NCBI GenBank assembly: GCA_030647955.1
Contig: JAUSIQ010000003.1
Location: 2,111 to 66,110 of the forward strand
Source: a bacterium
GTDB taxonomy: Bacteria > Patescibacteriota > Minisyncoccia > 2-02-FULL-40-12 > IGHO2-12-FULL-4
DNA length: 64,000 nucleotides
Direction of reading: 5' to 3'
In this document: positions 21,397-59,603 of the stretch, piece by piece
Numbering within the stretch: position 1 is the first letter of the stretch
Layout: each line of letters starts with the position of its first letter
The notes under the pieces: generated by a model
What the model saw: only the letters and a program-made list of their open reading frames with translations
Databases searched by the model: none
What the model was told of the DNA's origin: nothing
Made by a program: the position numbers and the translations under genes

Positions 21397-21478
21397 TTTA
21401 TCAAGTTTATAATGTTATAAAGTTTGTAAAGTTAAAATCTCTGACTTTAAAAACTTTACGAACTTGATGAACTTTTAA
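21397..21478. repeat. AT-rich palindromic intergenic element (family member A) between parA and parB
   Basis: Arms ATCAAGTTTATAA...TTTGTAAAGTT and AACTTTACGAACTTGATGAACTT are reverse complements; same motif family as copies at 31468, 47333, 47904, 57480, 59009, 59505. Confidence 0.7.
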
Positions 21479-21485
21479 CCCAACT

Positions 21486-22367
21486 TTGAAAAAGTTGTTT
21501 GGATTAGGTAAGGGCTTAAGCTCTCTTATACCGCCATCAACGGCGAAAAAGATTAATCCGGAAGAATCGCCGGCTAGTGTTTTTTATGTGGAAACAAGCA
21601 AAATTAAGCCTAATCCAGATCAACCTCGAAAAGATTTTGATGCCAGCGCGCTGGCCGAGTTAGCCTCTTCGATTAAGAAATATGGTATTTTGCAGCCCCT
21701 TTTAGTGGTTAAGATGGAAAAAGATTCTCCACGAGGAATTAATGTGGAATATCAGTTGGTAGCCGGAGAAAGGCGCTGGCGTGCGGCTAGATTAGTTAAC
21801 CTGCCTCAAGTTCCGGTGATCGTTAAAGATTCAGTAGTAGAGGACAAGATGAAGCTGGAGTTGGCCTTAGTGGAAAATCTCCAACGCGAAGATCTCAATG
21901 TCATGGAAGAAGCAGAAGCCTTCTCAAGATTACAAAAAGATTTTAGATTAACTCAAAAAGAAATTGGTGAACGAGTAGGAAAGAGTCGTGAGGTGGTGGC
22001 CAATAGCGTACGTTTATTGGAGTTACCAGGCGACATTAAAGAAAGCGTGCGTGCCGGGAAAATTTCGCGAACCCATGCCCGCGCTTTATTGGCTTTTAAA
22101 GATACGGATCAGCAGAGAGAGATGTATAAACAAATCTTAGCCGGCAGAATGGTGACGCGAGAAGTGGAAGAGGTGGCGGCTAGTGCCGTCAGTAGAGAGA
22201 AATCTTCTCCGGCCAAGGAGAATCGTTTTGATCAATTAGAAAAAAATCTTAGCGGCACACTCGGCACTCTCGTATTCATCAAAAACGGAGATAAGGGCGG
22301 ACGCATCGTCATTAAATTCGCTGATTTGGGCGAACTCAACAAAATCGTAAAAAGTATTCTTGACTAA
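21486..22367 (+). CDS. parB: Chromosome partitioning protein ParB/Spo0J
   Basis: ParB box ILQPLLV...LVAGERRWRAA; HTH region; TTG start. Confidence 0.85.
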   Translation: MKKLFGLGKGLSSLIPPSTAKKINPEESPASVFYVETSKIKPNPDQPRKDFDASALAELASSIKKYGILQPLLVVKMEKDSPRGINVEYQLVAGERRWRAARLVNLPQVPVIVKDSVVEDKMKLELALVENLQREDLNVMEEAEAFSRLQKDFRLTQKEIGERVGKSREVVANSVRLLELPGDIKESVRAGKISRTHARALLAFKDTDQQREMYKQILAGRMVTREVEEVAASAVSREKSSPAKENRFDQLEKNLSGTLGTLVFIKNGDKGGRIVIKFADLGELNKIVKSILD

Positions 22368-22385
22368 AGGTTTAGTAGTTTTGAT

Positions 22386-24341
22386 CTAGGCGAGTTTTTT
22401 GGCCGAGAGGATATCTTTGTGACTTTCTAACTTCTGAAAAAGACGTTTGGCATGAGCACTATTTTTCAGTGCTAAGGTAAGATTAACTGCCCCGACGCCA
22501 TTAGCGGCCGGGCTGTTTTTTATTTCCATTACATTAATTTTTAGATCGTTCATGATCTTGCCAATCTCCTGGAGCATACCAATACGATCTTTGACTTGCA
22601 GAGCGACGCGCAGGGGATAGTAGTCGGCCTTTTCCGGCCAGGCGACGGGAACTAGTTTTTTAGAGTTGAATTTCTTGAGATTGGCACATTCAACGCGATG
22701 AATAGAAATGCCTCTTTGTTTGGTTATATAGCCAATGATTTCGTTACTGGGAAGAGGCGAACAGCAGTGTGCCACAGTGGATAAGACATTGTATTGCCCG
22801 GTTACAAATATTTTACCTGCAGATACGGAAGTAAGCCGCAGAGGAGCGGGTTGGGGTTCAACATGAATGGGAGAAGGAGGGGGAACCGGTTCAGGATGTT
22901 TTTCTTTTAATAATGCTTGGATTTTTTTCTTTGCTTCGGTGGTTTTGACAATATTAAGCCAATCCCGTGATGGTTGGCGATATTTCCAGGTGACTATTTC
23001 GATAACTTCGCCATTTCTCAATCTGTAATCCAGGGGAACAATTTTGCCGTTTACTTTTGCGGCTTTGGCACTATGGCCGATATCAGTGTGGATGGCATAG
23101 GCAAAATCCAAAGGAGTGGATCCTTCGGGTAGATCTTTAACGTCTCCTTTGGGGGTGAGGACGAAGATACGGTCGCTAAAAAAGTTAGTGCGCAAAGAAT
23201 GATAAAATTCTTGGCTGGTAGCGTTGGCCATCCAGTTCTTTAACTCGGCGATCCACTTGGCTTCTTTGAGGTTGGCGGTATGTAATTTATTTTTACCAGA
23301 TTCTCCATAAGACCAGTGTGCGGCCACACCATTTTCGGCATGCTCATGCATTTCCGGGGTGCGTAGCTGAATCTCGGCGATTTTTCCACCCTCACAAAAG
23401 ATAGTGGTATGAATGGATCGATAGCCGTTGAGCTTTGGTAGGGCGATGTAATCCTTAATTAATCCTGGAACGGGCTTATAATTTTTATGCACAATGCCCA
23501 AGGCTTCGTAGCAAGAGGCAATACTAGGCAGAATAATACGGAGAGCAACTAAGTCATAAATGCGACTTAGATCATAATCTTGTTTAATAATTTTTTTGTA
23601 TAGGCTGTAGTAGTGTTTAGCTCGAGCGTTAGCATTAATCACCGGAATATTATGTTCAGCTAGACAGTTAATGATGATCGGCTGGACTCTTTCGAGATAT
23701 TTTCTGCGATCATGGTATTTGTCTTTGACCTCGTTGATCAGCCAGGCGTATTCTCTGGGGTAGACGTGGGGAAAGGCCATGTCTTCCAGCTCTCCCTTCA
23801 CTTGTCCCATTCCTAAGCGTTCGGCAATAGGAGCGTAGATTTCTAGAGTTTCTAGGCTAATTCTTTGACGGCCGGCAGAAGACTGTCCGCCGATAGTTTT
23901 CATGTTGTGATACCGATCGGCCAACTTGATCAAGATGACGCGAATGTCTTCGGCCATGGCAAAAAACATTTTGCGGAGAGACTGGGCTTTTAGATTTTGT
24001 TTGGCCTGAATATCTGGCGCGCCTTGATAGGCGAGAGCGGAAAGTTTAGTCACGGCTTTAACTAGGAAGGTAATTTCCTTGCCAAAAGCTTTTTCCATTT
24101 CTTCCTCGGTGACGGGAGTGTCTTCTAAAACATCATGCACGAGGCAGGCCGCGATAGTCACGCCGTCTAGTTTAAGGTCAGCCAGCATTTCGGCGGTGGC
24201 CAGAGGATGGGTAATGTAGGGTTCACCTGAAGCGCGGAACTGTCCCGCGTGCGCTTTTTCCGCAAAAAGAAAGGCCCGTTTGACTAGTTCACGGTCATCC
24301 TTACGAGTAGGATCAATTTTGTTTAAAAGGCCCTGATACAT
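22386..24341 (-). CDS. rel: Bifunctional (p)ppGpp synthetase/hydrolase (RelA/SpoT family)
   Basis: HD hydrolase domain (HPLATAEMLADL...HD), synthetase motif YRSIHTTIF..., TGS and ACT regions. Confidence 0.9.
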   Translation of the reverse strand: MYQGLLNKIDPTRKDDRELVKRAFLFAEKAHAGQFRASGEPYITHPLATAEMLADLKLDGVTIAACLVHDVLEDTPVTEEEMEKAFGKEITFLVKAVTKLSALAYQGAPDIQAKQNLKAQSLRKMFFAMAEDIRVILIKLADRYHNMKTIGGQSSAGRQRISLETLEIYAPIAERLGMGQVKGELEDMAFPHVYPREYAWLINEVKDKYHDRRKYLERVQPIIINCLAEHNIPVINANARAKHYYSLYKKIIKQDYDLSRIYDLVALRIILPSIASCYEALGIVHKNYKPVPGLIKDYIALPKLNGYRSIHTTIFCEGGKIAEIQLRTPEMHEHAENGVAAHWSYGESGKNKLHTANLKEAKWIAELKNWMANATSQEFYHSLRTNFFSDRIFVLTPKGDVKDLPEGSTPLDFAYAIHTDIGHSAKAAKVNGKIVPLDYRLRNGEVIEIVTWKYRQPSRDWLNIVKTTEAKKKIQALLKEKHPEPVPPPSPIHVEPQPAPLRLTSVSAGKIFVTGQYNVLSTVAHCCSPLPSNEIIGYITKQRGISIHRVECANLKKFNSKKLVPVAWPEKADYYPLRVALQVKDRIGMLQEIGKIMNDLKINVMEIKNSPAANGVGAVNLTLALKNSAHAKRLFQKLESHKDILSAKKLA

Positions 24342-24473
24342 GACAAAAGGGTTAAATCCCGTTAGAGATGATGATATGTGTCGTAGTCAAGATATTATTT
24401 TTAAATCAAATTGGGGACTTGGTAGATCTCTAACGGGATAAACTTTAATCTAACAGAAACTCATTATGTTGAC

Positions 24474-24505
24474 AAAACCCCGCCCCTCTAGAGGGGCGGG
24501 GTTTT
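24474..24505. terminator. Perfect palindrome AAAACCCCGCCCCTCTAGAGGGGCGGGGTTTT, intrinsic terminator downstream of topA
   Basis: 12-bp GC stem with flanking A/T runs on both sides. Confidence 0.7.
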
Positions 24506-24517
24506 GTGGAGGAGTAT

Positions 24518-26752
24518 TTATTTCGGCTCGGCAGACTTAGCGGGTGCGTTTTTTGGTTTAGGAGGATTGTCTTTCCAATGTTGCAAGGCCTCTTGAAGCT
24601 CGGCTTCGCTCTCCGGTTTTTTGCCCATTAAGAAATTACAGTCCGGATAGCTGGTGCAGGCGTAAAAAACTTTGCCGCGTCCGCGAGATTTCTTTTCTAC
24701 GACATCGCCAATTGGGCCTCCTTCGCCAAGGCTTCGGCGGGCCAAGCAATTCGGACATTTGAATCCAGTTTTGTTCCAGATTTTAGAAATACCTTTGCAG
24801 GCTGGATAGTCACTGCAGCCCAAAAAGTATCCGAATCGGCCGCGTTTGACGATCATTGGTTTACTGCAAAGCGGGCAATTTTCTCCTTGGGTTTTTTCTT
24901 CCAGTTCTTTAATTTTAGCGGCCTCTTCAGGTAAGGGCATAGTTACTTTGCTTTCCGGGTCGGGGCAGGCCATAAACTTTCCCATGCGTCCGAATTTAAT
25001 AATCATCATTTTACCACAATGAGGGCAAGGGGTAGCTGAAATTTCAGTTAGTTTTTCCACGCTGACTTCTTTTTCCGTCAGATGCTTTTTGAAAGGAGTA
25101 TAGAATTCCTCGATAACCGGAACCCACTTTGATTTTCCCGCAGCGATGTTATCGAGTTCTTCTTCCATGTGAGAAGTGAAATTGATGTCGATAATTTCAG
25201 GGAAGTTTTCTACCAACATGTCATTAACCAAAAAACCAATTTCCGTCGGCTGATATTTTTTATCGATTTTGGCCACATAGTCTCGCTCTTGAATGGTTGA
25301 AAGAGTTGGAGCATAGGTGGACGGGCGGCCCACGCCGTGAGTTTCCAAAGCTTTAATGAGAGAGGCATCGGTGTAGCGAGGAGGAGGTTCGGTAAAATGT
25401 TGGAGCGGCAATAAGTCCAAGAGTTTTAAAATCTCATCGACGTTTAAGTCTGGTAATTGTCCTTCAACCTCTTCCTCTTCCTTCTCATCTTGGCCTTCGG
25501 TGTAGGCGCGAATAAATCCGTCGAATTTTACGACTTGTCCGTTAGCACGAAAAGTGTGATGAACACCGGCCGTGCGAGGCTTGGCATCAATATCGACGCT
25601 AGTTTGATCAAAAACGGCCGGAGCCATCTGGCTAGCGATAGCGCGTTTCCAAATTAAATCATAAAGACGAGACTGGCTACGCTCTAATTCACCCTTCATT
25701 ATATCCGGAGACTTGGAAAAGTCGGTGGGGCGGATAGCTTCGTGGGCTTCCTGGGCTCCTTTGGACTTGGTGGTGTACTGGCGTAATTGGGAATAGTTTG
25801 GTCCGAAATATTGGGTGACTACTTCTTTGGCCTGAGCTAAAGCGGATTGGGCCAGGTTAACGCTATCTGTACGCATGTAGGTGATGTGCCCGTTTTCATA
25901 GAGCTGTTGAGCAATCATCATGGTCTGTTTGGCAGACATGCCTAATTTACGTGCGGCTTCCTGCTGGAGAGTAGAAGTCGTAAAGGGAGCAGCGGGGTTG
26001 CGCGTCACTTCTTTTTTGTTAATCTCGGCGACGCGATAATCCGCCCCATCCAAGGTGGCCAAGATTTTCTTGGCCGAGGGCTCGTTTTTTAAATCCATTT
26101 TGCCCAAAGCCTTCTCGCCAATTTTAATCAAGCGTCCGCGAAATTTGGGTCCACCCGTTTTTTTCTTAAAATCTGCTTCGATGCTCCAATATTCTTCTTT
26201 AACGAACTTTTGAATCTCTCGTTCGCGCTCCACTACTAAGCGCACGGCTACGCTTTGTACTCTGCCGGCCGATAAGCCGTAGCGAATTTTTTTCCACAAA
26301 AAAGGAGAGAGTTCGTAACCTACTAATCGGTCTAAAACGCGACGAGCTTGCTGGGCATCAATCAAATTAAAATCTAACTCTCGAGGGTGCTCGAGAGCTT
26401 CTTGAATGGCGCCCTTGGTGATTTCATGAAAAACAATTCTCTGGACCTTTTTCTTTTTAAAATTAAGCGCTTCGCTTAAATGCCAAGAGATGGCCTCGCC
26501 TTCACGATCAGGATCGGTTGCGAGTAAAATTGTGTCGGATTTTTCGACGGCTTCTTTTAACTCCGCGATAACTTTTTTGGCTTTGGCCGGAATAACATAT
26601 TTCGGTTCAAAGTTGTGCTCCACGTCGACACCCAGTTTTGACTTGGGCAAATCGCGGACATGGCCGAAAGAAGACAACACCTTAAAATCCGATCCTAAAA
26701 ACTTTTGCACAGTTTTCGATTTAGTTGGACTTTCTACTATAATAAGTTTCAT
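24518..26752 (-). CDS. topA: DNA topoisomerase I with C-terminal zinc ribbons
   Basis: Toprim start MKLIIVESPTKSKT; catalytic Tyr region; multiple CxxC...CxxC ribbons. Confidence 0.9.
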   Translation of the reverse strand: MKLIIVESPTKSKTVQKFLGSDFKVLSSFGHVRDLPKSKLGVDVEHNFEPKYVIPAKAKKVIAELKEAVEKSDTILLATDPDREGEAISWHLSEALNFKKKKVQRIVFHEITKGAIQEALEHPRELDFNLIDAQQARRVLDRLVGYELSPFLWKKIRYGLSAGRVQSVAVRLVVEREREIQKFVKEEYWSIEADFKKKTGGPKFRGRLIKIGEKALGKMDLKNEPSAKKILATLDGADYRVAEINKKEVTRNPAAPFTTSTLQQEAARKLGMSAKQTMMIAQQLYENGHITYMRTDSVNLAQSALAQAKEVVTQYFGPNYSQLRQYTTKSKGAQEAHEAIRPTDFSKSPDIMKGELERSQSRLYDLIWKRAIASQMAPAVFDQTSVDIDAKPRTAGVHHTFRANGQVVKFDGFIRAYTEGQDEKEEEEVEGQLPDLNVDEILKLLDLLPLQHFTEPPPRYTDASLIKALETHGVGRPSTYAPTLSTIQERDYVAKIDKKYQPTEIGFLVNDMLVENFPEIIDINFTSHMEEELDNIAAGKSKWVPVIEEFYTPFKKHLTEKEVSVEKLTEISATPCPHCGKMMIIKFGRMGKFMACPDPESKVTMPLPEEAAKIKELEEKTQGENCPLCSKPMIVKRGRFGYFLGCSDYPACKGISKIWNKTGFKCPNCLARRSLGEGGPIGDVVEKKSRGRGKVFYACTSYPDCNFLMGKKPESEAELQEALQHWKDNPPKPKNAPAKSAEPK

Positions 26753-26802
26753 ATCTTTTTGTTGATTTGATAATTAATCCTGAGCAATGATCACTAGATT
26801 GA

Positions 26803-27858
26803 TTAAGTATATAGACAAAACTTGTTATTACCTAAATTTTTAACTTTGCTCTCCAGCTCCATGTCCATTAAACAGGAGACGACTTCTCGGGTGGGGCGTT
26901 CCGTTTGGCGGATAATTTGATCTAAGGTAACTGTTTCGTGACCAATGCTTTTCAATATCTTCTTCTCTAGCTCGTTGGCTGGAGCTACGACAGGCTTGAA
27001 GAGATTATACTGAATATTGTAATCTGTCAAAATGTCGCTAGCGGAAGCCACTAGTTTTGCTCCGGCTCGAATTAGATTATTGGGTCCTTGGGAGCGTGGC
27101 GAAAAGATTGATCCGGGGACGGCAAAGACATCGCGATTTTGATCTAGGGCACATCGGGCCGTAATTAAGGAACCACTCTTTTCATCCGCTTCCACGACGA
27201 GTATTCCTTTGGAAAGTCCGCTAATAATGCGGTTGCGTTGCGGAAAAGATTGTTTGTGGCCGTGAACATTCAGGCTGTATTCACTAATAATCGCGCCGCC
27301 TGTTTTTATAATATCCTTGGAGAGGGCCTGGTTCTGTTGGACGATAGAATTATCGTTAATCCCTCCGCCTAAAACGGCGATAGTGGGTAGTTTGTTTTTT
27401 ACGGCGGTTTGGTGAGCCATGCCATCGATACCCATCGCTAATCCAGAGACGATGGTAAAGCCGGCTTTGGCGATACCTTCGGCGATAACCGGAGTGGCGC
27501 GGCGGCCGTAATCGGTCGGATTTCGGGTGCCGACTATTCCAAAGCACAAGTTGTTAAGAATATCAGCGTTACCTTTTATATATAGTAGGAAGGGTCGGTC
27601 AGCGACATTTTTTAGTGACGGAGGGTAGGCCGGATCGTTGAGAGTAATAATCTGGAGTCCAGTATCTAAGACACGAGCATATTCTTTTTGCGGATTTATC
27701 TTGGCTTGGACTGAACCATCTTTCGGAAGAAATTTTTTGAGAGCAGGAGAATTCCAAGCCCGCTCAAAATTACCTTCAAATTCAGCGGCGATTTTATGGA
27801 GGACGCCTATTTCCGCGGAGATCAGAATATTGATGGCGTTGAGGTAGGGGAGTTGCAT
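26803..27858 (-). CDS. dprA: DNA processing protein DprA (Smf)
   Basis: Rossmann-like DprA core GIVGTRNPTDYG...IVSGLAMGIDGMAH...VLGGG; classic dprA-topA adjacency. Confidence 0.85.
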   Translation of the reverse strand: MQLPYLNAINILISAEIGVLHKIAAEFEGNFERAWNSPALKKFLPKDGSVQAKINPQKEYARVLDTGLQIITLNDPAYPPSLKNVADRPFLLYIKGNADILNNLCFGIVGTRNPTDYGRRATPVIAEGIAKAGFTIVSGLAMGIDGMAHQTAVKNKLPTIAVLGGGINDNSIVQQNQALSKDIIKTGGAIISEYSLNVHGHKQSFPQRNRIISGLSKGILVVEADEKSGSLITARCALDQNRDVFAVPGSIFSPRSQGPNNLIRAGAKLVASASDILTDYNIQYNLFKPVVAPANELEKKILKSIGHETVTLDQIIRQTERPTREVVSCLMDMELESKVKNLGNNKFCLYT

Positions 27859-27864
27859 GGAGAA

Positions 27865-28431
27865 TTAGGAAACGATCTGAGTCAATTTCGCTAATCCTTC
27901 TTTGATAATCTTCTTGAGATCTTCCTTTTCGGTAGAAGTAAAAGAAGACAAAACCAAGTTGCCGATCAACTCTTTTCTCTTTTCGTCAGATGATTGGCTG
28001 CGAGCTAATTTTAATTTAGAGTTGCCGATGCCGATTTTAAGACGATAGATTTTTTCGGTTTTAAGATGATTGATAATTGAAGCCACCCCTTTGTGTCCGC
28101 CCGGACCGGATTCCGGGGTGAGTTTGGTGGAGCCAAATGGGACATCCAGATCATCGTGAATGATAATGATATTTTCGTTTTTCAATTTGTAGAAAGTTTT
28201 AATTTTCTTTACCGCTACACCGGAATTATTCACGTACGTCTGCGGCTTGGCTAAGATAACCTTTTGATCATTAAATTTCCCTGAAGCGATTTCCGCTTCC
28301 AGTTTTTTCTCCAATACAAACTCGCTGGCCTTCATTTCTTTGGCCAAAGCATCTAAAAACTTAAACCCCACATTGTGGCGAGTTCCTTCGTATTGCTTAT
28401 CCGGATTACCTAAACCGATAATTAGATACAT
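27865..28431 (-). CDS. pth: Peptidyl-tRNA hydrolase
   Basis: MYLIIGLGNP...RHNVGF N-terminus. Confidence 0.85.
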   Translation of the reverse strand: MYLIIGLGNPDKQYEGTRHNVGFKFLDALAKEMKASEFVLEKKLEAEIASGKFNDQKVILAKPQTYVNNSGVAVKKIKTFYKLKNENIIIIHDDLDVPFGSTKLTPESGPGGHKGVASIINHLKTEKIYRLKIGIGNSKLKLARSQSSDEKRKELIGNLVLSSFTSTEKEDLKKIIKEGLAKLTQIVS

Positions 28432-28545
28432 TCCGTACGAAGTAGCAGGGTCATGGACATAAGTTGAGTGACCACGACTTGGCTACCTTATTATTTAACG
28501 TTCCCGTTACCAGTTAACCCGACAGGGCGACTTCGTACGGGATAC
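28432..28545. repeat. ~114-bp element with terminal inverted repeats TCCGTACGAAGT / ACTTCGTACGGGA (family 2, copy 1), abutting the pth start codon
   Basis: Inverted repeat seen directly; same TIR core as 50438-50544. Confidence 0.55.
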
Positions 28546-28603
28546 ATGTCTTACATTATATAGGGAGAACAAAATAAGGCAAATAAGCGTATTTCGCTAT
28601 CTG

Positions 28604-31203: not shown

Positions 31204-31467
31204 ATGGACGTCAAAAGACGACCGAATGAAACAATCGGCAGTGCTTTACGAAGATTTTCTAAACTGGTTCAACAGAGCCGGCTTTTGAATAAAGCAAAAG
31301 CCTCTCGTTTCTACAAAAAGAAAGCGAGCGATCGACAAGATAAGAACCGCGCTATTATGCGTGAAGAGTTAAGAGCTCTCCGCAAGCGTTTAGAAAGACT
31401 GGGTAAGTACGACGATGAAACTTTTGAAGAAGAGAAGAGAAAAGTTAAACAAAAACTAGATCTATAG
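31204..31467 (+). CDS. rpsU: 30S ribosomal protein S21
   Basis: MDVKRRPNETIGSALRRFSKL...RFYKKK matches the S21 pattern. Start reassigned to ATG at 31204, preceded by AAAGGAGG; the tracked ORF start at 31105 is upstream of the RBS. Confidence 0.7.
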   Translation: MDVKRRPNETIGSALRRFSKLVQQSRLLNKAKASRFYKKKASDRQDKNRAIMREELRALRKRLERLGKYDDETFEEEKRKVKQKLDL

Positions 31468-31556
31468 TTCATCAAGTTCATAAAGTTTGTAAAGTTCATA
31501 AAGCAAGAGAAATGCGAACTTGATAAACTTGAGAACTTTATAACTTGATAAACTGT
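31468..31556. repeat. AT-rich palindromic intergenic element (family member B) between rpsU and yqeY
   Basis: TTCATCAAGTTCATAAAGTTTGTAAAGTTCATAAAG ... AACTTGATAAACTTGAGAACTTTATAACTTGATAAACT arms. Confidence 0.7.
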
Positions 31557-33867: not shown

Positions 33868-33981
33868 TCGTCGCCGATGCTTATTTATAAGCTTCGTTAA
33901 TCGTTTTCCACATCTTATCCACACCCTATTTAGCCCAAACTTGTAATGGTTTTTCTTTTGTGATAAACCGAGATCAAACAC

Positions 33982-38488: not shown

Positions 38489-38704
38489 CTAGAACCACAT
38501 CCGTTTCGAGAACTCCTCTTGCTCCAGGCGATCTCGGATCGCCTTCTCGCGGCGATAAGCCAGGAGTTCTCCAAGCTCCGTCCGGTCCTCCTCGTCTAGG
38601 ACAAGATCTTCGCCTTTATCCAGAGCGGGAAGACGAAACGGGGTACTTTTACTGACTCGCGGGTCGCGGGTTTCGGGGACGAATGTCCCCCCTAAACTGC
38701 TCAT
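38489..38704 (-). CDS. Small acidic hypothetical protein (71 aa) in a GC-rich (~58%) island
   Basis: AGGAGG 7 nt upstream of ATG. Composition deviates strongly from the ~43% flanks. Confidence 0.4.
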   Translation of the reverse strand: MSSLGGTFVPETRDPRVSKSTPFRLPALDKGEDLVLDEEDRTELGELLAYRREKAIRDRLEQEEFSKRMWF

Positions 38705-46920: not shown

Positions 46921-47334
46921 ATGCCGACATTTAACCAACTATTAAAGAAACCCCGCAAGAAGCTTAAGGCGAAGACTAAGTCGCCGGCTTTGGCGCACAG
47001 TTTTAACACGGTTTTGAATCGTCCGGTTTTCCATGATTCTCCTTTTAAGCGTGGTGTGGCCTTGAGTGTTAAGACCACCACTCCCAAGAAGCCGAACTCT
47101 GCTTTAAGAAAAATCGCCCGCTTGCGTCTTACTAATGGTATGGAAGTGACCGCTTACATTCCCGGAGTAGGACACAATCTCCAAGAGCACTCTGTTGTCA
47201 TGATTCGTGGTGGAAGAGTTAAGGATTTGCCTGGTATTCGTTACCACATTGTCCGTGGCGTTTTAGACTCGTCCGGAGTAGAGGGTCGCAAACAAGAGAG
47301 AAGTAAATACGGAGCCAAACGGCCGAAAAAATAA
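46921..47334 (+). CDS. rpsL: 30S ribosomal protein S12
   Basis: [14 protein letters not shown]...; S12 signature throughout. Confidence 0.95.
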
Positions 47335-47424
47335 GTTCATCAAGTCCATCAGGTTATAAAGTTCATAAAGTGGAAAACAAATTATAGAACTTTAAAAACT
47401 TGATAACTTTACAAACTTTTAACT
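47333..47424. repeat. AT-rich palindromic intergenic element (family member C), overlapping the rpsL stop codon
   Basis: AAGTTCATCAAGTCCATCAGGTTATAAAGTTCATAAAGTGG...AACTTTAAAAACTTGATAACTTTACAAACTTTTAACT; 92 nt identical to copy D. Confidence 0.75.
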
Positions 47425-47903: not shown

Positions 47904-47996
47904 CAAGTTCATCAAGTCCATCAGGTTATAAAGTTCATAAAGTGGAAAACAAATTATAGAACTTTAAAAACTTGATAACTTTACAAACTTTTAACT
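47904..47996. repeat. AT-rich palindromic intergenic element (family member D) between rpsG and fusA; identical to C
   Basis: 92-nt identity with 47333-47424. Confidence 0.75.
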
Positions 47997-50114: not shown

Positions 50115-50429
50115 ATGAATCTTAAAGATGTTAAAAAATTAGTGAAGACCCTGGGACATGTTGTAGTCGTAGAAGAGGATGGTTCGGGATTGGTAATCAT
50201 CTCGCTTGATAAATATCTCAGCCTGGTCAATGGACATGAGGAAGCAGTAACCACCGCTGAGGTATATACGGAAGAAAGCGGTGAAGTTGTCCTTCCCGAG
50301 AGCATTCGAGGGTTAAACGAACAAGAGCTAATGCTGATAGAGAAGCTCAATCAAGACATTGCGATTTTAAAAGAAGAAATTAAAAAGAAGGAGTTGGAGG
50401 AGCTGGAAAGTGGCTTAGGAGAAGGCTAA
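50115..50429 (+). CDS. Small protein with Phd/YefM-antitoxin-like N-terminal domain (orphan), inserted between fusA and tuf
   Basis: Pattern L..L...VVVEEDG...VIISLDKYLSL resembles the YefM/Phd fold; acidic coiled C-terminus; no toxin partner nearby. Confidence 0.3.
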   Translation: MNLKDVKKLVKTLGHVVVVEEDGSGLVIISLDKYLSLVNGHEEAVTTAEVYTEESGEVVLPESIRGLNEQELMLIEKLNQDIAILKEEIKKKELEELESGLGEG

Positions 50430-50437
50430 TGGGTGTT

Positions 50438-50544
50438 GATCCCGTACGAAATTTAACAGTTTATGAGCAATAATAATCAGAGGCGAGTCGCTACAAATTC
50501 AGCCTAATGTTATAATCATTTATCAGTTAAATTTCGTACGGGAT
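50438..50544. repeat. ~107-bp element with 19-bp terminal inverted repeats GATCCCGTACGAAATTTAAC / GTTAAATTTCGTACGGGAT (family 2, copy 2)
   Basis: Near-perfect inverted repeat seen directly; same CCGTACGAA core as 28432-28545. Confidence 0.6.
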
Positions 50545-51925: not shown

Positions 51926-52261
51926 ATGTCTACTGAAAAGAAAAAAACTAAAGAAGTAGCTCAACAGCGCATTCGCATTAAGCTTAAGGCGTACGATAAT
52001 AAAATTATCGATCGCTCTGCTAAGCAAATTGTGGATACTATCGAGCGGGTGGGCGGAAAGGTGGTTGGACCGGTGCCGTTACCAACGGAAATTCACAAGT
52101 ACACCGTCAACCGCTCCACTTTCGTCCATAAAGATTCTCGAGAGCAGTTTGAGATGCGTGTACACAAAAGACTGATTGATATCACCAACCCGGCTTCCAA
52201 AATCATCGATGCGTTGATGAATCTGAACTTGCCGGCTGGAGTAGACATCGAAGTGAAGTAA
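51926..52261 (+). CDS. rpsJ: 30S ribosomal protein S10
   Basis: S10 signature [11 protein letters not shown]... Confidence 0.95.
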
Positions 52262-52410
52262 TTATTCTCTTCCTCTTCCCATCTTTCACGGTGGCAAGAG
52301 ATAAGGTAGTAATTCCCACGGGAGTCCTGCCCTAAATCCAATGGTTTTAAAACAGAAGAATTTATTAAAGACTTAGTTAAAAGTTTTTAGGTTTAGCGTA
52401 CTTGGAATTT

Positions 52411-52434
52411 CCCAGCTAAACCTGGGTTTTTTGT
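52411..52434 (+). terminator. Terminator-like hairpin CCCAG-CTAAA-CCTGGG plus TTTTTT inside the 209-nt rpsJ-rplC spacer (possible attenuator)
   Basis: Stem and T-run seen directly. Confidence 0.35.
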
Positions 52435-52470
52435 TAACTTTTATAATTATTCGCTTCGCTCATAAACAAA

Positions 52471-53070: not shown

Positions 53071-53083
53071 TTAACTAACCAAA

Positions 53084-53743
53084 GTGAAAACTGACTTATA
53101 CAATCAGGGAGGAGAAGTGATCGGGGAAGTTCAGTTACCTGAAAAAGTTTTTGGTGTGGCTATCGATCATGACTTATTGCACCAAGCCGCCGTGGCTCAG
53201 CTAGCTAATCGTCGCCAAGTTTTGGCTCACACAAAAGATCGCAGTGAGGTTAGTGGAGGAGGAAAGAAGCCTTGGCGTCAGAAAGGTACGGGTCGTGCTC
53301 GTCACGGTTCGATTCGTTCTCCAATTTGGAAGGGTGGAGGAGTCGCGTTTGGTCCAAGCAAAGATCGTAATTTTTCTGTAAAGATTAATAAGAAAGTTAA
53401 GCGCAAAGCTATTTTTATGGCCTTGTCTGGAAAAGTTAAAGATAAACAGATTTTGGTTTTAGATGGGGTTTCCATCAATGAAGCGAAAACCAAGACATTG
53501 GTTGGGTTGCTTAAAACTATTTCTGGAAAATTAGCCGGTTATCGCAGTTCCAAAACCAAAAAGGACAGTGTTTTGATGGTATCGGCCAAGAGCGATGAGA
53601 AGTTGAATCGGGCCATTAATAATATTGGATTTGCCAAGACTTTAGATGCGAAGAGCTTGAATGTTCTGGACCTGTTATCTTACAAATATATTTTATTGAC
53701 CCAGGATGCCATTCCTGTTATAGAAGAAACTTATAAAATCTAA
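53084..53743 (+). CDS. rplD: 50S ribosomal protein L4
   Basis: L4 signature. Confidence 0.9.
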   Translation: MKTDLYNQGGEVIGEVQLPEKVFGVAIDHDLLHQAAVAQLANRRQVLAHTKDRSEVSGGGKKPWRQKGTGRARHGSIRSPIWKGGGVAFGPSKDRNFSVKINKKVKRKAIFMALSGKVKDKQILVLDGVSINEAKTKTLVGLLKTISGKLAGYRSSKTKKDSVLMVSAKSDEKLNRAINNIGFAKTLDAKSLNVLDLLSYKYILLTQDAIPVIEETYKI

Positions 53744-53745
53744 CC

Positions 53746-54141
53746 ATGGGTATTAGGAATATTTTTAAAAAACGAGATGAAGCCAGTCAGCCTGTCACGG
53801 AAAAAGAAACCAAAAAAGAGACCAAGGCGACGGAGGCTACCATCCCCGATTTAAAAGGGAACGATTTTTCATACCGCAATATTATTAGTCCGTATTTAAC
53901 CGAAAAGACCACAATTTTGAATGCCGATGGTCAGTATGCTTTTAAAGTTTTTCCCAAAGCGAACAAGATTGAAATAAAAAAGGCGATTGAGCGGCTTTAC
54001 AGTGTGCATGTCGAGAAAATTCGCATCATGGTGGTTCCGAGCAAGGCGCGCCGCTTGGGAAAATATGAAGGAGAAAAGACTGGTTTTAAAAAGGCGATTG
54101 TGCGATTAAGAAAAGGAGAAAAAATTGAGGTGGCTCACTAA
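53746..54141 (+). CDS. rplW: 50S ribosomal protein L23 (with N-terminal extension)
   Basis: L23 core YAFKVFPKANKIEIKKAIERLYSVHV. Confidence 0.85.
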   Translation: MGIRNIFKKRDEASQPVTEKETKKETKATEATIPDLKGNDFSYRNIISPYLTEKTTILNADGQYAFKVFPKANKIEIKKAIERLYSVHVEKIRIMVVPSKARRLGKYEGEKTGFKKAIVRLRKGEKIEVAH

Positions 54142-54152
54142 AGCCCAGGTTT

Positions 54153-54980
54153 ATGTCTAAATTATACAAACCCACAACTGCATCACGAAGACACATGACG
54201 GGATACGACTTCTCGAATTTGTCTAAGGTTAAACCGTTGAAATCGAAAACGAAAGGTTTTCGTCGTTCGGTTGGCCGTGGTAATACGGGATTGATCACCG
54301 TGAGACACAAAGGCGGTGGCGTAAAAAGACTTTTTCGAGAGATTGATTTTCATCAGACGAAATTAAACATACCTGGAAAAGTTTTCTCTTTAGAGTATGA
54401 TCCTAATCGCACGGCGCGTATTGCCCGTATTCATTATGCCGACGGCGCCCAGGCTTATATTTTAGCTCCGGAAGGATTATCCGTGGGAGATACCATTGTG
54501 ATGAGCGATAAGGTGCCATTGAAGCCGGCTAATCGCGCTAAGTTAAAAAATATTCCTCAAGGTACAGAAGTTTACAATATCGAACTTTTTCCTGGTAAAG
54601 GCGGAGAAGTAGTTCGTTCGGCGGGATCGAAAGCAGTGGTCATGTCTAAAGATGCCGGCTATGTCCAAGTGCAAATGCCTTCTTCTGAATTACGAAAGTT
54701 TCCGGAAGATGCCATGGCTTCCATTGGACGACTCTCTAACCAAGAGCACAGCTCTATCGTCATAGGTAAGGCTGGTCGTTCACGTCATCTTGGTATCAGG
54801 CCGACGGTTCGTGGATCGGTCATGAACCCTGTGGATCACCCACACGGTGGAGGAGAAGGAAAGCAGGGCATTGGCCTGCCTTATCCGAAAACCCCGTGGG
54901 GCAAGCACGCTTTGGGAGTTAAGACTAGAAACAAGAAAAAGCGTTCTGCCAAGTTTATTGTTCGTCGCCGCAAGAAATAA
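54153..54980 (+). CDS. rplB: 50S ribosomal protein L2
   Basis: L2 signature incl. GRNxxG and [14 protein letters not shown]. Confidence 0.95.
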
Positions 54981-54997
54981 GATTTTCATTTAACCAT

Positions 54998-55336
54998 ATG
55001 TCTAGAAGTGTCAAAAAAGGTGTATATGTAGACGAGAGAGTGCTCAAGAAATTGAGCAAGGTTCGTGCGGGAGATAAGACTATTATTAAAACCTGGGCGC
55101 GGGCATCGACGATTACCCCAGAGATGATCGGTTTTACTTTTGGCGTACACAACGGTAAAAATCATATCCCAGTTTTTATTACGGAAGACATGGTTGGACA
55201 TAAGTTAGGTGAATTTTCTCCTACACGTAAATTTACTCGTCACGGAGGAAGAATGCAGAAAGAAATTGAGGCGGCTGCCAAGCAGAAAGAAATTGATTCC
55301 GCCAAAGCGGCTAAGGTTGAGCCAGAGAAGAAATAG
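54998..55336 (+). CDS. rpsS: 30S ribosomal protein S19 (C-terminally extended)
   Basis: S19 signature [18 protein letters not shown]. Confidence 0.9.
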
Positions 55337-55350
55337 TTTAAATTTCCATC

Positions 55351-55878
55351 ATGAAAATTACTGCCCAATTAAATAATCTCCGCATTTCGCCTCGCAAGGT
55401 GCGATTGGTGGCTGGATTAATCAAGGGCAAGGATGCGATGGTAGCCAGGCAGCAATTGAATTTTTTGACTAAGAGATCTTCTGGTCCAATGGCTAAGCTA
55501 TTAGAGTCGGCTTTGCAAAACGCCGAGCATAACTTTGGATTGTTGAAAGAAAATCTTTTCATTAAAGATGTGGTGGTGAATGAAGGTATGAAGTTGAAAA
55601 GATTTATGCCTAGAGCGATGGGAAAAGCCGGATCAATCCAGAAGAAAACTTCTCGCATTACTGTAGTCTTGGAAGAAAAAGTTCCGGGTTTGAAAGCGAA
55701 CAAAAATGATGCCGCCAAACACAAGCACGAAGCTGGTGAGCACGCCGAAGAGGGACATAAGCACGATAAGAGTAAAGTTAAGCCTGAATCTGAAGTAAAA
55801 TCTGATATTAATAAAAAAGGTGTTCTTGGCGACGTTAAAAACGCCGGCCGGAGACTATTTAGAAGAAAAAGCGTTTAG
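55351..55878 (+). CDS. rplV: 50S ribosomal protein L22 (Lys-rich C-terminal extension)
   Basis: L22 signature ISPRKVRLVAGLIKG. Confidence 0.9.
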   Translation: MKITAQLNNLRISPRKVRLVAGLIKGKDAMVARQQLNFLTKRSSGPMAKLLESALQNAEHNFGLLKENLFIKDVVVNEGMKLKRFMPRAMGKAGSIQKKTSRITVVLEEKVPGLKANKNDAAKHKHEAGEHAEEGHKHDKSKVKPESEVKSDINKKGVLGDVKNAGRRLFRRKSV

Positions 55879-55891
55879 TATTTAATATTGT

Positions 55892-56542
55892 ATGGGACAA
55901 AAAATTTCTCCAACTTCTTTCCGATTGAGTATTCATAAAAAGTGGTTATCCCGCTGGTTTGGATTGGGTAAAAAATATACCGAGTACTTTCACGAGGATT
56001 ATGCGGTGCGTCAGTTTTTAAATAAGAAGCTCAAGAACATGAGTGTAGATCGAATCGAGCTTGAGCGTAGCCCCGATACTTTTACGATTATTGTATTTAC
56101 TGCTCGTCCGGGTTTGATTATTGGCCGAGGAGGCACGGGAGCGGAGGATCTTAAAAAAGAAGTGCGCCGCTTGATTAAGCGGAAGACCGCTATTAGAATT
56201 GAGATTCAGGAATACAAAAATCCGGAATCTTCCGCAGCGATTATGGCCGAGTCTATTGTAGAGCAAACTGAGCGGCGTATTCCTTTTCGACGTCTGATGA
56301 AGCAGATGCTCGGTAAGATCGTCGCCAACAAAAAAGAAGTATTTGGGGCGAAGATAGAAATGTCCGGCCGCCTAAACGGAGAAGAAATTGCGCGCACCGA
56401 GCACTTGGAACAAGGAAATCTGCCACTGCAAACTTTGCGTGCCGACATTGATTATGCCAAGAGAACGGCATACACCACTTACGGCACGATTGGAGTGAAA
56501 GTTTGGATTTACAAAGGCTTAAAATTCGAAGACAAATCCTAA
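55892..56542 (+). CDS. rpsC: 30S ribosomal protein S3
   Basis: KH domain and S3 C-domain signature. Confidence 0.95.
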   Translation: MGQKISPTSFRLSIHKKWLSRWFGLGKKYTEYFHEDYAVRQFLNKKLKNMSVDRIELERSPDTFTIIVFTARPGLIIGRGGTGAEDLKKEVRRLIKRKTAIRIEIQEYKNPESSAAIMAESIVEQTERRIPFRRLMKQMLGKIVANKKEVFGAKIEMSGRLNGEEIARTEHLEQGNLPLQTLRADIDYAKRTAYTTYGTIGVKVWIYKGLKFEDKS

Positions 56543-56545
56543 AAT

Positions 56546-56950
56546 ATGTTACAGCCTAAAAGAATAAAACACCGCAAGGTTCATGTTGGAAATATACCCG
56601 CCAAAGCTACTCGTGGCGCGACTTTGAGTTTCGGAAACTTTGGAGTGCGCGCGATGGAGTCCAAAATGATCACTTCGCGACAAATTGAATCTGCTCGCCG
56701 TACGATGACTCGTTTTATTCAGCGCGGAGGAAAAATTTGGATTAGAATCTTTCCGGATAAGCCGATGACCTCTAAACCCCCCGAAGTTGGTATGGGAGGA
56801 GGAGCGGGAGCTTTGAAAGAGTTCGTTGCCGTAGTAAGTGCCGGAAGAATTTTGTTTGAAATGGACGGCGTCACTGAAGCTACGGCTCGCGAAGCTTTTC
56901 GTTTGGCAGGTTACAAGTTGCCCATTAAGACCAAGTTTATTAAACGCTAA
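56546..56950 (+). CDS. rplP: 50S ribosomal protein L16
   Basis: L16 signature. Confidence 0.95.
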
Positions 56951-56952
56951 TT

Positions 56953-57138
56953 ATGAAAGTTTCCGAATTACAACAAAAGAATAAAACTGAATTACGGGAG
57001 ATCTTAAGTGATCTGCAGATTAAGTTGGGCAAATTAAGATTTGAATTGAGTGCCAATACCCTGAAAGATTCCAGCCAGGTGAAGAAGGTCAAGAAAGATA
57101 TGGCCAGGGTCTTAACTATTTTACGAAATCATTATTAA
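56953..57138 (+). CDS. rpmC: 50S ribosomal protein L29
   Basis: L29 signature; 61 aa. Confidence 0.85.
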   Translation: MKVSELQQKNKTELREILSDLQIKLGKLRFELSANTLKDSSQVKKVKKDMARVLTILRNHY

Positions 57139-57188
57139 GTGTTATAAGTAAGAACCCTAGTAATCCTTGAGGTTATAGGGCCAATTTC

Positions 57189-57479
57189 ATGGAAAACAGC
57201 CATAAAAACCAGGTAGAAGTAGGACGAACCCTTCAAGGAGTGGTGGTTTCGGATAAAATGATTAAGACCGTGGTAGTGGCTGTTAATCGTTTAAAAAAGC
57301 ACCCTAAGTATAAAAAATATTACCGCGTGACCAGTAAATACAAAGCACACGATGAAGCCAGGGCCTATCATATTGGTGACAAGGTGATTATTCGAGAGAC
57401 GCGACCTATTTCAAAGGATAAGCGCTGGGTGGTGGTAGAGAAAGTAGCAGGAAGTCAAAAGACGGAAGAAGGTTTATAA
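57189..57479 (+). CDS. rpsQ: 30S ribosomal protein S17
   Basis: S17 signature [14 protein letters not shown]. Confidence 0.9.
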
Positions 57480-57543
57480 AGTAAAGCTGCCAAAAGGAAT
57501 CTTACTTTATGAACTTGAAGAACTTTATAACTTGATAAACTAG
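57480..57543. repeat. AT-rich palindromic intergenic element (family member E, shorter, opposite orientation) between rpsQ and rplN
   Basis: Contains ACTTTATGAACTTGAAGAACTTTATAACTTGATAAACT, the reverse-complement orientation of the AAGTTCATAAAGT unit. Confidence 0.6.
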
Positions 57544-57546
57544 TTT

Positions 57547-57912
57547 ATGATTCAATTACGATCCATCGTTACTGTAGCAGATAATAGCGGAGCCAAAAAA
57601 GTTGGTGTCTTTAAGGTATTGGGCGGAACTCGCAAGCGCTATGCTCAACTGGGCGATGTCGTCGTGGTATCCGTTAAAGAAGCGGAGCCCCGTAAGCAAG
57701 TTAAGAAAAAAGATGTCTTACGAGCGTTAGTGGTTCGTCAGCGACAAAACTTCCGACGAGCAGATGGTAGTTATGTGCGCTTTGATGAAAACGCGGTTGT
57801 AATTTTAGAAGGTAAGGAGCCCAAGGGAGGAAGAATTTTCGGTCCCATTCCTCGTGAGATTAAAGAGCGCGGCTATGATACGATTGCTTCCTTAGCCCAA
57901 GAGATTGTCTAA
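57547..57912 (+). CDS. rplN: 50S ribosomal protein L14
   Basis: L14 signature. Confidence 0.95.
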   Translation: MIQLRSIVTVADNSGAKKVGVFKVLGGTRKRYAQLGDVVVVSVKEAEPRKQVKKKDVLRALVVRQRQNFRRADGSYVRFDENAVVILEGKEPKGGRIFGPIPREIKERGYDTIASLAQEIV

Positions 57913-58231
57913 ACATATGTCCAAGATTAAAAAAGGCGACAATGTAAAAATGCTTTCTGGAAAAGACCGTGGAAAAAACGGGACAGTTTCTTTGGTTTTA
58001 GCCCAGGGTGCAGATGCGCGGGTAGTAATCGAGGGTTTGAATAAAGTAAAAAAACATCAGCGCGCCCGCAAACAAGGACAGAAAGGACAGATTATTTCCG
58101 TAGAAAGACCAGTAAATATTTCCAGCGTGCAATTAATCTGTAAGAGTTGCGGTAAACCGACGCGAGTTGGTTTTAAGGTGGACGGTGATAAAAAAGAAAG
58201 AATTTGTCGTAAATGTTCAGCCACGATTTAA
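57905..58231 (+). CDS. rplX: 50S ribosomal protein L24 (with C-terminal Cys4)
   Basis: KOW motif IKKGDNVKMLSGKDRGKNG; CKSCGK...CRKC. Confidence 0.9.
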   Translation: MSKHMSKIKKGDNVKMLSGKDRGKNGTVSLVLAQGADARVVIEGLNKVKKHQRARKQGQKGQIISVERPVNISSVQLICKSCGKPTRVGFKVDGDKKERICRKCSATI

Positions 58232-58247
58232 TAAAAAAGAGTTTAAT

Positions 58248-58817
58248 ATGGATACTCCAAGAATGTTAACTAAATATCGCAAAGAGATAGTCCCGGCCAT
58301 GCGGGAGAAGTTTAAATACAAGACTGTTATGGCGGTGCCAAAAGTTTTAAAGGTGGTTTTGAATATTGGCGTGGGACGCTATGTGAAGGATGATAAGATG
58401 CTAGAAGTTATTGAAAGAGATTTAAGTTTAATCACCGGACAGAAACCCGCCCCGACTTTTGCCAAGAAATCCATCGCTAGCTTTAAGCTTCGCGAGGGGA
58501 TGAAGGTGGGTTATAAAGTAACCTTGCGAGGAAAGAGAATGTATGATTTTATAGATAGACTAGTATCTATCGCTTTCCCCAGAACTCGCGATTTTCGAGG
58601 TTTGGATTTAAAATCTTTTGATAAAAAAGGTTCCTTGAATTTGGGTATTACGGAACAGAGTATCTTTCCGGAAGTGCATTATGAATCCTTAAAAGAAGTT
58701 TTCGGCTTAGAGATCGCGGTAGTAACCAGTGCCCAAAGAAGAGAGGAAGCGATTGAATTGTTAAAATTGATCGGATTTCCATTTAAGAAAGAAGAAAAGA
58801 AAACCAGTAAGAAATAA
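58248..58817 (+). CDS. rplE: 50S ribosomal protein L5
   Basis: L5 signature. Start set at ATG 58248 (MDTPRMLTKY...), not the tracked 58167 which overlaps rplX. Confidence 0.85.
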   Translation: MDTPRMLTKYRKEIVPAMREKFKYKTVMAVPKVLKVVLNIGVGRYVKDDKMLEVIERDLSLITGQKPAPTFAKKSIASFKLREGMKVGYKVTLRGKRMYDFIDRLVSIAFPRTRDFRGLDLKSFDKKGSLNLGITEQSIFPEVHYESLKEVFGLEIAVVTSAQRREEAIELLKLIGFPFKKEEKKTSKK

Positions 58818-58822
58818 ATACC

Positions 58823-59008
58823 ATGGCGAAAGAATCAACTAAGGCGCGAGCCAAAAAGAAACCCAAATATTCCAGCCGGATTGTCCGACGCTGTTTTATC
58901 TGCGGAAGAAAATACGGTTATATGCGCAAGTTCGATTTGTGTCGTATGCATTTCAGAGAATTGGCTAGTGAAGGATTGCTGCCAGGTATTACAAAATCAT
59001 CTTGGTAA
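58823..59008 (+). CDS. rpsZ: 30S ribosomal protein S14 type Z (zinc-binding)
   Basis: 61 aa, CFICGRK...CRMHFRE, ends ...SSW. Confidence 0.9.
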   Translation: MAKESTKARAKKKPKYSSRIVRRCFICGRKYGYMRKFDLCRMHFRELASEGLLPGITKSSW

Positions 59009-59097
59009 GAGAAGTTCATCAAGTTTATAAAGTTATAAAGTTCATAAAGTAGAAGGATCAAGTCTTAAAACTTTACGGACTTTTCACTTTATAAACT
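59009..59097. repeat. AT-rich palindromic intergenic element (family member F) between rpsZ and rpsH
   Basis: GAGAAGTTCATCAAGTTTATAAAGTTATAAAGTTCATAAAGTAGAA...AAAACTTTACGGACTTTTCACTTTATAAACT; near-identical to G. Confidence 0.75.
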
Positions 59098-59105
59098 ATT
59101 CCGCT

Positions 59106-59504
59106 ATGTATATTGTTTCCGACATGTTAATAAGAATCAAAAACGCGCAGGCGGCTCGAAAAGAGCGGCTTTTGATTCCGTTCTCCAAGATGAAATGGGA
59201 GATTGCCAAAGTCCTTAAAGAGGCGGGCTTTATTCAAGACTTTGAGAGAAGAAAAAAGAAAATAAAAAAGACCGAGCATGCTTTTATTGAAGTTAAGTTG
59301 GAGGTAACGGCAGGAGATGTGGCTATTTCTGAAGTAAAAATTATCAGCAAACCATCGAGACGGGTCTATATCAAAAAGAGTGAAATTCGACCAGTCTTAG
59401 GAGGTTATGGCATCGCGATTCTCTCTACTCCGAAAGGAGTAATGACGGGAGAAGAAGCCAAGAAGAATAACTTAGGAGGGGAATGGTTAGCTGAGATATG
59501 GTAA
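59106..59504 (+). CDS. rpsH: 30S ribosomal protein S8
   Basis: S8 signature. Confidence 0.95.
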   Translation: MYIVSDMLIRIKNAQAARKERLLIPFSKMKWEIAKVLKEAGFIQDFERRKKKIKKTEHAFIEVKLEVTAGDVAISEVKIISKPSRRVYIKKSEIRPVLGGYGIAILSTPKGVMTGEEAKKNNLGGEWLAEIW

Positions 59505-59603
59505 GAGAAGTTCATCAAGTTTATAAAGTTATAAAGTTCATAAAGTAGAAAGATCAAATCTTAAAACTTTAAAAACTTTACGGACTTTTCACTTTATAAA
59601 CTA
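59505..59603. repeat. AT-rich palindromic intergenic element (family member G) between rpsH and rplF; equals F plus a 10-nt internal duplication
   Basis: Differs from F by 3 single-nucleotide substitutions plus the 10-nt insertion AAAACTTTAA; the preceding TGGTAA (last codon + stop) is also shared with the rpsZ junction. Confidence 0.75.

Follow-up and report, generated by a model that had tools for sequence, protein, structure and literature searches.

Palindromic elements built from tandem nonamer units in the intra-operon spacers of a Patescibacteria-type genome

The window analyzed here, a 64,000-nucleotide stretch of contig JAUSIQ010000003.1 (NCBI GenBank assembly GCA_030647955.1), carries ribosomal-protein genes, a parA-parB pair, and the DNA-uptake genes comEC, split into two open reading frames (ORFs), and dprA, both of which had been recognized in a preliminary description of the window. 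It encodes a DUF5652 protein (Pfam), and the 9 nt between ORFs 60520-61080 and 61090-61545, taken by position as S5 and L15, leave no room for L30; its best nucleotide matches are to a Saccharibacteria metagenome-assembled genome (MAG; 74% for tuf). These features point to a host from the candidate phyla radiation (CPR), or Patescibacteria. Seven spacers of the window hold a palindromic element (A to G, Table 1) composed of three to four tandem AAGTTYRTM units of 9 nt (sometimes 8), a spacer of 5-35 nt, and three to five units in reverse complement. The 13-mer core AAGTTYATMAAGT, allowing one mismatch or fewer, has 34 matches in the window as against 0.56 expected from dinucleotide shuffles, and all but one of these matches fall within the seven elements. 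All seven are intergenic, an arrangement with a chance probability of about 5e-8 in a window that is 91% coding, and together they make up 10.5% of its non-coding bases. As judged by a conserved asymmetry between the arms, every one of them is oriented in the direction of transcription. The preliminary description had reported at least seven copies in short spacers directly after stop codons, two of them overlapping the stop; all seven are present within a few bases of where they were placed, and the flanking genes it named were confirmed by Pfam, but the upstream stop codon is overlapped by four elements (A, B, C, and E) rather than two. A relaxed nhmmer profile search revealed no eighth or decayed further copy in the window.

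Comparison of the seven copies indicates that they have been copied from site to site. C and D share an identical 92-nt sequence that is sharply bounded and set in unrelated flanks, and F and G differ by two substitutions in the loop and by exactly one additional 9-nt unit; the recent copying proposed earlier for these two pairs is thereby borne out, and in both the most similar copies occupy neighboring spacers. Copying between sites must have taken place, given that one unit order is common to all seven spacers and that D repeats C exactly. It has left no target-site duplication at C or D, whose flanks (AAAAAAT...ATAGTC and ATAACC...TCTGCA, respectively) contain no direct repeat, and the flanks of F and G are also unlike each other. 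Copies gain and lose whole units and can decay, as illustrated by E, a decayed copy that has lost its left arm except for one unit. It is very improbable, by contrast, that each hairpin grew in place from a short seed, through slippage and template switching, without any movement between sites. Local growth would suit the whole-unit difference between F and G, the variable unit numbers, the existence of many unit families with one common architecture (see below), and the frequency with which arbitrary AT-rich nonamer tandem patterns occur in large collections, but it accounts neither for the same unit sequence and 9-9-8-9/7-nt asymmetry in seven separate spacers nor for the identity of C and D, and the detailed unit pattern recurs in other genomes. 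For the nonamer family, this shared fine structure largely refutes it. The elements are not an assembly artefact, because independent Logan contigs of run SRR13727527, which encode identical S12 and S14 proteins, run into C and F and stop 28 nt and 24 nt inside them, respectively.

Table 1. Position and composition of the seven palindromic elements in the window (z, folding relative to shuffled sequence)
Element	Coordinates	Strand	Spacer	Composition and context	Folding and profile scores
A	21394..21478	+	parA-parB	First unit TAGTTTATC supplies parA stop codon; units 9-9-8-9, loop, three 9-nt units, then ACTTTTAAC	RNA -25.1 kcal/mol, z -5.9; nhmmer 60 bits on + vs 31 on -
B	31465..31556	+	rpsU-yqeY	First unit TAGTTCATC supplies rpsU stop; flanks S21 and YqeY by Pfam	RNA z -5.1
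C	47333..47424	+	rpsL-rpsG	rpsL stop TAA overlaps first unit; same sequence as D	
D	47905..47996	+	rpsG-fusA	Exact duplicate of C	
E	57468..57545	+	rpsQ-rplN	One left-arm unit, overlapping rpsQ stop; four right-arm units	RNA z -2.7, DNA z -1.7; nhmmer 22 bits, model positions 21-89 only
F	59012..59100	+	rpsZ(S14)-rpsH	Begins 3 nt past stop codon	RNA z -6.2
G	59508..59605	+	rpsH-rplF	Near-copy of F; extra 9-nt unit lies in right arm	RNA z -5.1

The distribution of related elements depends upon how membership in the family is defined. When one genome per species was scanned for the tandem pattern AAGTTYRTMAAGTTYRTMAAGT, the matches numbered at least 120 stretches and were spread over many phyla, Bacteroidales, Ignavibacteria, and cyanobacteria among them; on viral contigs, the real pattern matched 81 stretches, the reversed pattern at least 120, and a shuffled-unit pattern 40. 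Given these controls, the tandem pattern alone proves nothing, and a cross-phylum family based on it was rejected. Membership was therefore restricted to full-length profile matches sharing the fine asymmetry of the window copies, in which one arm contains an 8-nt AAGTTATA unit and the opposite arm has units of 7 nt or CTTTT(T)AC. Matches of this kind come mostly from the CPR, from MAGs of Saccharibacteria, Berkelbacteria, Moranii-, Magasanikii-, and Parcubacteria and other Patescibacteria, and these further copies support the repeat family with hairpin potential proposed earlier; the membership of a few Bacteroidetes hairpins (retrieved loci L038, L046, L057, and L091) is ambiguous. Among the 81 viral pattern matches, a single contig of IMG/VR, predicted to be viral (L224, 9245-9309), holds a full nonamer-type hairpin, located between two structural-looking genes. 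In two CPR MAGs (L009 and L035), elements flank an NYN/LabA-like gene between rpsO (S15) and pnp, a region that in other bacteria is a classic substrate of RNase III processing.

The elements are lineage-specific insertions into intra-operon spacers that are otherwise tiny. Among 80 syntenic ribosomal-protein loci, retrieved by means of protein L2 (53-89% identity), only three contain the nonamer family. In the closest relative that spans the sites of E, F, and G (L122, with an L2 protein 85% identical), the S17-L14 spacer is 11 nt and the S14-S8 spacer 8 nt long, as expected of the tightly packed operons into which the elements had been placed. This locus also contains two further features, a GC-rich hairpin, ACCCAGCTCTTTC...GAAAGAGCTGGGT, at 917-1064 in the L2-S19 spacer, which in the window measures 18 nt, and, at 5290-5352, an unrelated S8-L6 spacer of 60 nt, where the window has element G. 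Other genomes have copies in the S19-L22, S3-L16, S10-L3, L36-S13, rpoA-L17, L23-L2, and atpH-atpA spacers, as well as after groEL and around hydrogenase genes (in the spacer between the small and large subunits), and the window spacers that match these occupied sites are empty. Elements land in either orientation, copies opposed to transcription being found at L076_852, L118, L018_1024, and L133. In three cases a copy occupies the same spacer in the window and in another lineage (C and L153, E and L133, F and L172). Because loops and orientations differ, orthology of these copies was rejected, and they are independent insertions. No pair of near-identical sites, one empty and one filled, was present among the 80 syntenic loci, and exact-protein look-ups for S7, L14, and S8 returned no match.

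The presence of comEC and dprA in the window, together with the strong over-representation of the core, had led to the suggestion that the core is a DNA uptake signal recognized by the competence machinery, and natural competence has been described in Saccharibacteria (PMC10187176). The over-representation, however, derives wholly from the seven clusters; outside them, the single match compares with 0.56 expected, and no copies of the motif lie in coding sequence. Known DNA uptake sequences and uptake signal sequences (DUS/USS) are short motifs scattered over whole genomes, also within genes, at frequencies far above expectation, a distribution inconsistent with that observed here. In addition, the same operon in the closest relatives lacks the motif, and other lineages use different units. 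Of the explanations considered, we regard an uptake signal as the one with the least to recommend it, and as hardly credible.

A second suggestion was that the elements act in RNA. Such a function would make them intercistronic hairpins that tune ribosomal-protein and other highly expressed operons, either as barriers to RNase III or exonucleases or through translational coupling. All copies lie between co-directional genes, and the predicted long hairpin was found in six of the seven, which fold far better than shuffled sequence both as RNA (z -4.5 to -6.2) and as single-stranded DNA (ssDNA; z -3.5 to -5.0); E, to which a long hairpin had also been ascribed, folds only weakly. The base of the hairpin holds stop and start codons, elements are over-represented next to highly expressed genes, those for ribosomal proteins among them (p ~0.002), and the S12-S7, S17-L14, and S14-S8 spacers have been occupied independently in distant lineages. 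An expression-tuning role has also been proposed for the REP sequences of Escherichia coli. The hairpins formed by short tandemly repeated repetitive (STRR) sequences between hupS and hupL, proposed to stabilize transcripts or to couple translation (PMC2670836), offer an analogy.

No test, however, supports a conserved or selected RNA structure in the elements. When arms were swapped among elements, own arms paired no better than those of other elements (mean z -0.34), and at variable positions opposing units are Watson-Crick complementary in 52.5% of cases as compared with 53.6% after permutation (p = 0.65); pairing is thus not the property that is kept. Folding favors the sense over the antisense RNA in 14 of 27 elements (p = 0.95). 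Among Rfam 15 covariance models, two tRNAs alone reach the gathering score in the window and none matches an element; in E-value mode, the sole match between 57400 and 59700 is a chance miRNA hairpin (E = 0.55). Terminator-like sites, consisting of a G+C-rich stem and a U tract, coincide with no element and are as numerous as in shuffled sequence, and consensus sigma-70 promoters (-35/-10, spacing of 16-18 nt) were matched within C and E only, with 23 such sites overall where 22.1 are expected. Start codons downstream of the hairpins are as accessible as those of other genes (0.535 in both). By-eye comparison with boxA, LexA, FNR, and IHF-like sites gave no fit. The absence of elements from the closest relative, whose spacers measure 8-11 nt, the occurrence of both orientations, and the loss of one arm from E are further difficulties for an RNA function. 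We consider intercistronic RNA signals an unlikely explanation, although the main rival to the one favored below, and the conserved mRNA processing or stability structure put forward earlier finds no support in covariation, in strand preference, or in Rfam, promoter, or terminator matches. Co-transcription of the elements and some effect upon the RNA are nevertheless possible.

Displacement of Shine-Dalgarno sites by the elements was likewise rejected, since most genes of this genome, including all of the ribosomal-protein genes in the window, lack such a site in any case. A minority of window genes do have strong GGAGG sites (for example 4555-4917, 38489-38704, 40400, 41303, 42356, and 43559).

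What is conserved among copies would seem to be the units rather than the base pairs between them. Over 30 CPR copies the unit consensus is AAGT(T>C)(C/T)(A>G)T(A>C), in which the parsing method itself imposes the AAGT anchor; the T at position 8 is invariant, and variation, consisting mostly of transitions, is confined to the pyrimidine-purine step and one A/C position. Of 171 units, 119 are 9 nt in length and the remainder 8 or 7 nt. Pairwise identity between copies is 0.78 and 0.73 in the two arms but 0.38 in the loops, which range from 5 to 35 nt. Conservation of a unit consensus without arm-to-arm pairing, limited variation within each unit, and contiguous units in both direct and inverted order are what might be expected of binding-site arrays for a host protein, such as a nucleoid-associated or ribbon-helix-helix protein, that organizes or regulates the chromosome, with the hairpin as a by-product. 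The location of A between parA and parB would also suit a role of this kind. Binding of the units by a protein is possible, as the preliminary description allowed, but we judge it improbable that the elements are primarily such arrays: close relatives lack them, unit number is as free to vary as spacer length, one genome can contain several unrelated unit families, no candidate protein was found, and the positions occupied resemble neutral landing sites rather than regulatory regions.

With moderate confidence, we favor the reading that the seven elements are a family of small non-autonomous mobile palindromes, foldback- or REPIN-like, that spread at the level of DNA and are tolerated in intra-operon spacers. 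A DNA-level repeat is favored over a conserved RNA signal because of the patchy distribution, the two orientations, the decay of E, the lack of covariation, and the combination of conserved arms with free loops. Among the roles originally offered, a selfish repeat resembling REP sequences or miniature inverted-repeat transposable elements (MITEs) is the best fit, given the absence of elements from the closest relative, their presence in other spacers and both orientations, and the decayed copy. Each arm is an array of three to five copies of an 8-9 bp unit, the two arrays being inverted around a spacer of irrelevant sequence. Because units rather than base pairs appear to be conserved, the arms are probably recognition sites, used most likely in cis for copying by some enzyme, one candidate being a HUH/RAYT-type transposase specific for hairpins or ssDNA; alternatively, the arm sites could be homogenized through gene conversion and slippage. 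The lack of a target-site duplication makes a classical DDE-type MITE unlikely and is compatible with HUH/RAYT-type or recombinational copying. The elements may persist in operon spacers because, in a genome that is 91% coding, few other sites could take up an insertion without harm. Once transcribed, the hairpin would be self-contained, returning the stop and start codons to a separation of about 10-20 nt and leaving the start region accessible.

Several observations weigh against mobile palindromes. Neither a transposase nor a RAYT gene is present among the 66 window ORFs (Pfam), and no transposase lies between split arrays in other loci. The ORFs within the split arrays of L105 and L069, which were considered as a possible autonomous element, encode a peptidase, a zeta-toxin-like protein, and a glycyl-radical enzyme, and this candidate was rejected. 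The missing target-site duplication makes the classical DDE MITE an unlikely model, and insertion is deduced from relatives at about 70-75% nucleotide identity rather than from an exact pair of empty and filled sites. The coexistence of several distinct unit families in one small genome (L127, described below) is awkward if each family needs its own sequence-specific protein. Finally, 7 of 27 unbiased CPR copies adjoin ribosomal-protein genes (binomial p ~0.002 under an assumed background of 7%), and different lineages have been occupied independently at the same spacers; this enrichment and these recurrent positions could reflect function rather than tolerance.

The nonamer family works like REPIN, STRR, and foldback elements, but it differs from each in at least one defining feature and belongs to none of them. 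Like REP and REPIN sequences (PMC3116915, PMC3733652), its members are extragenic, palindromic, and multi-copy, measure about 100 nt, consist of inverted halves around a spacer, are predicted to form hairpins in ssDNA and mRNA, lie mostly between unidirectional genes, can occur as several families per genome, and lack target-site duplications. Unlike REPINs, they are found in CPR hosts, and their arms consist of tandem direct units of 8-9 bp instead of two REP palindromes. The GTAG/CGTC tag that marks REP sequences (PMC3733652) is absent from the ends of all seven copies, which read TAGTT or AAGTT at one end and AACT(A) at the other, and no window ORF represents the linked RAYT gene, a Y1 transposase flanked by repeats. 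The STRR sequences of cyanobacteria (PMC2670836) are likewise short intergenic tandem units that form hairpins and fall into several unit families, and they occur in the spacer between hydrogenase small and large subunits, as does the nonamer family in a small-large-type spacer of a Moraniibacteriota locus (L027). STRR sequences, however, are heptamers of other sequence in filamentous cyanobacteria, whereas the AAGTTYRTM units are 9, 8, or 7 nt long, are arranged as a regular two-arm palindrome, and reside in a CPR-type host.

The likeness to eukaryotic Foldback elements is one of architecture only, with no homology implied. These also have long inverted arms made of tandem short repeats, with variable arm length and a variable or absent loop, but they are of kilobase scale and generate target-site duplications, and some carry transposase genes. 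The Correia/NEMIS elements of Neisseria and the RUP and BOX elements of Streptococcus are non-autonomous intergenic repeats of about 100 nt that form co-transcribed hairpins within operons; their terminal inverted repeats are defined, their interior is conserved, and they are flanked by duplications of TA or another target. The nonamer elements share the terminal inverted repeats, in the form of inverted arrays, but have hypervariable loops, arms of tandem units, and no duplication at either the C/D or the F/G flanks. Unit-cluster and nhmmer scans of the retrieved loci showed no ORF-bearing version that might serve as an autonomous partner with the same ends. TIGR arrays, which occur in the CPR, consist of 36-nt units with two variable spacers of 8-12 nt and box C/D motifs and adjoin a tas gene encoding a Nop-domain protein (PMC12045711). 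These were rejected as a model, the nonamer units being 8-9 nt long without variable spacers and the window ORFs including no Nop-domain protein. A search of the searchable literature, by sequence and keyword, found no description of tandem-unit palindromic repeats in the CPR.

The nonamer family is one of many palindromes of the same architecture in related CPR genomes, a point missed in the preliminary description. Ribosomal-protein operons of these genomes contain equivalent elements made of other 7-9 nt units (for example TAGCGTT, TTCTAAT, TACGAAT, TTAGAAC, TAGAAAA, CTCAAAT, and TTCAAAT). A strict detector based on the spacing of 5-mers, which replaced a simple autocorrelation detector that was too strict, found 20 tandem-unit palindromes in 9 of 81 sequences, an undercount, and none in shuffled sequence. 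In L127 (1-20825), a palindrome is located in almost every operon spacer, a point also in favor of intercistronic RNA signals; on either side of rplV stand two nearly identical copies, a counterpart of C/D and F/G, and the operon is broken up by additional small ORFs of opposite strand. Packed tandem-unit palindromes were also noted in L126, L133, L143, L154, L159 (2054-2188), L160, L163, L166, L171, and L174.

We raise tentatively, as a possibility we rate as unlikely, that the nonamer family is one member of a broad, undescribed class of CPR palindromes with near-arbitrary 7-9 nt units, which colonizes nearly all spacers of some ribosomal-protein operons (L127) and either spreads in a structure-driven, sequence-independent manner, without an element-specific transposase, or has been adopted as intercistronic punctuation. 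Spread could proceed by hairpin- or ssDNA-directed copying, or by natural transformation and recombination within the conserved flanking genes; punctuation, if that is the role, would be a standard feature of these organisms, which are poor in Shine-Dalgarno sites and RNases. CPR genomes are deemed highly streamlined, yet tandem-unit palindromes are present in the very operons that are most conserved and most tightly packed, to the point of saturation in some lineages. Binning and phylogeny rely on the ribosomal-protein block, and within it these repeats interrupt assemblies of short reads. They also provide a simple system for the question of how small hairpin repeats can be mobile when no transposase is obvious, and a test case for the effect of co-transcribed hairpins upon operon expression in organisms that largely lack Shine-Dalgarno sites. 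The palindromes of CPR operons in general may deserve a study of their own.

Other repeats were noted in the course of this analysis. A second class of palindromes has conserved termini of 12-18 nt, ATCCCGTTAGAG...CTCTAACGGGAT (in the window also ATCCCGTACGAAATTTAAC...), around a long variable interior. It is represented in the window at 24356-24439 and 50439-50544, and elsewhere in L159 (7849-7978), L181 (13958-14037 and 15119-15222), L182 (2822-2951 and 8096-8225), and L200 (6969-7041). One of the window copies is situated just upstream of a relA/spoT-like gene, and the end of the other coincides exactly with a good match to a -35/-10 promoter, TTGACT-16-TACAAT, which precedes tuf. Palindromes of a related kind, with GC-rich termini, were seen in L127, L138, and L200. 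Tandem arrays of a 9-nt unit that are long and pure (ACTTTACAA, CTATAAACT, CTCTACACA, and the like), many of them at the ends of contigs, are present in Ignavibacteria MAGs (L020, L024, L036, L071, L073, L088, and L107), and arrays of the same kind in Bacteroidia (L072, L093, and L115). These arrays are intergenic minisatellites that break assemblies, and their kinship with the CPR family is unproven.

Three further features of the window lie outside the elements. Between fusA and tuf, a 104-amino-acid ORF (50115-50429) has no Pfam match, and rpsJ follows tuf at 51926-52261. The 114-nt ftsA-ftsZ spacer contains, at 33904-33923, two DnaA-box-like nonamers with 2 nt between them, TTTTCCACA and TTATCCACA, the latter a perfect consensus; in L029, TTATCCACA likewise stands immediately after one element (1223-1301). 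A 54-nt palindrome occupies 20262-20315, and its right arm is the 3' part of a tRNA-Leu gene (20294-20377, minus strand); it duplicates the end of the tRNA in part and in inverted order, and is possibly what is left of an integration site.

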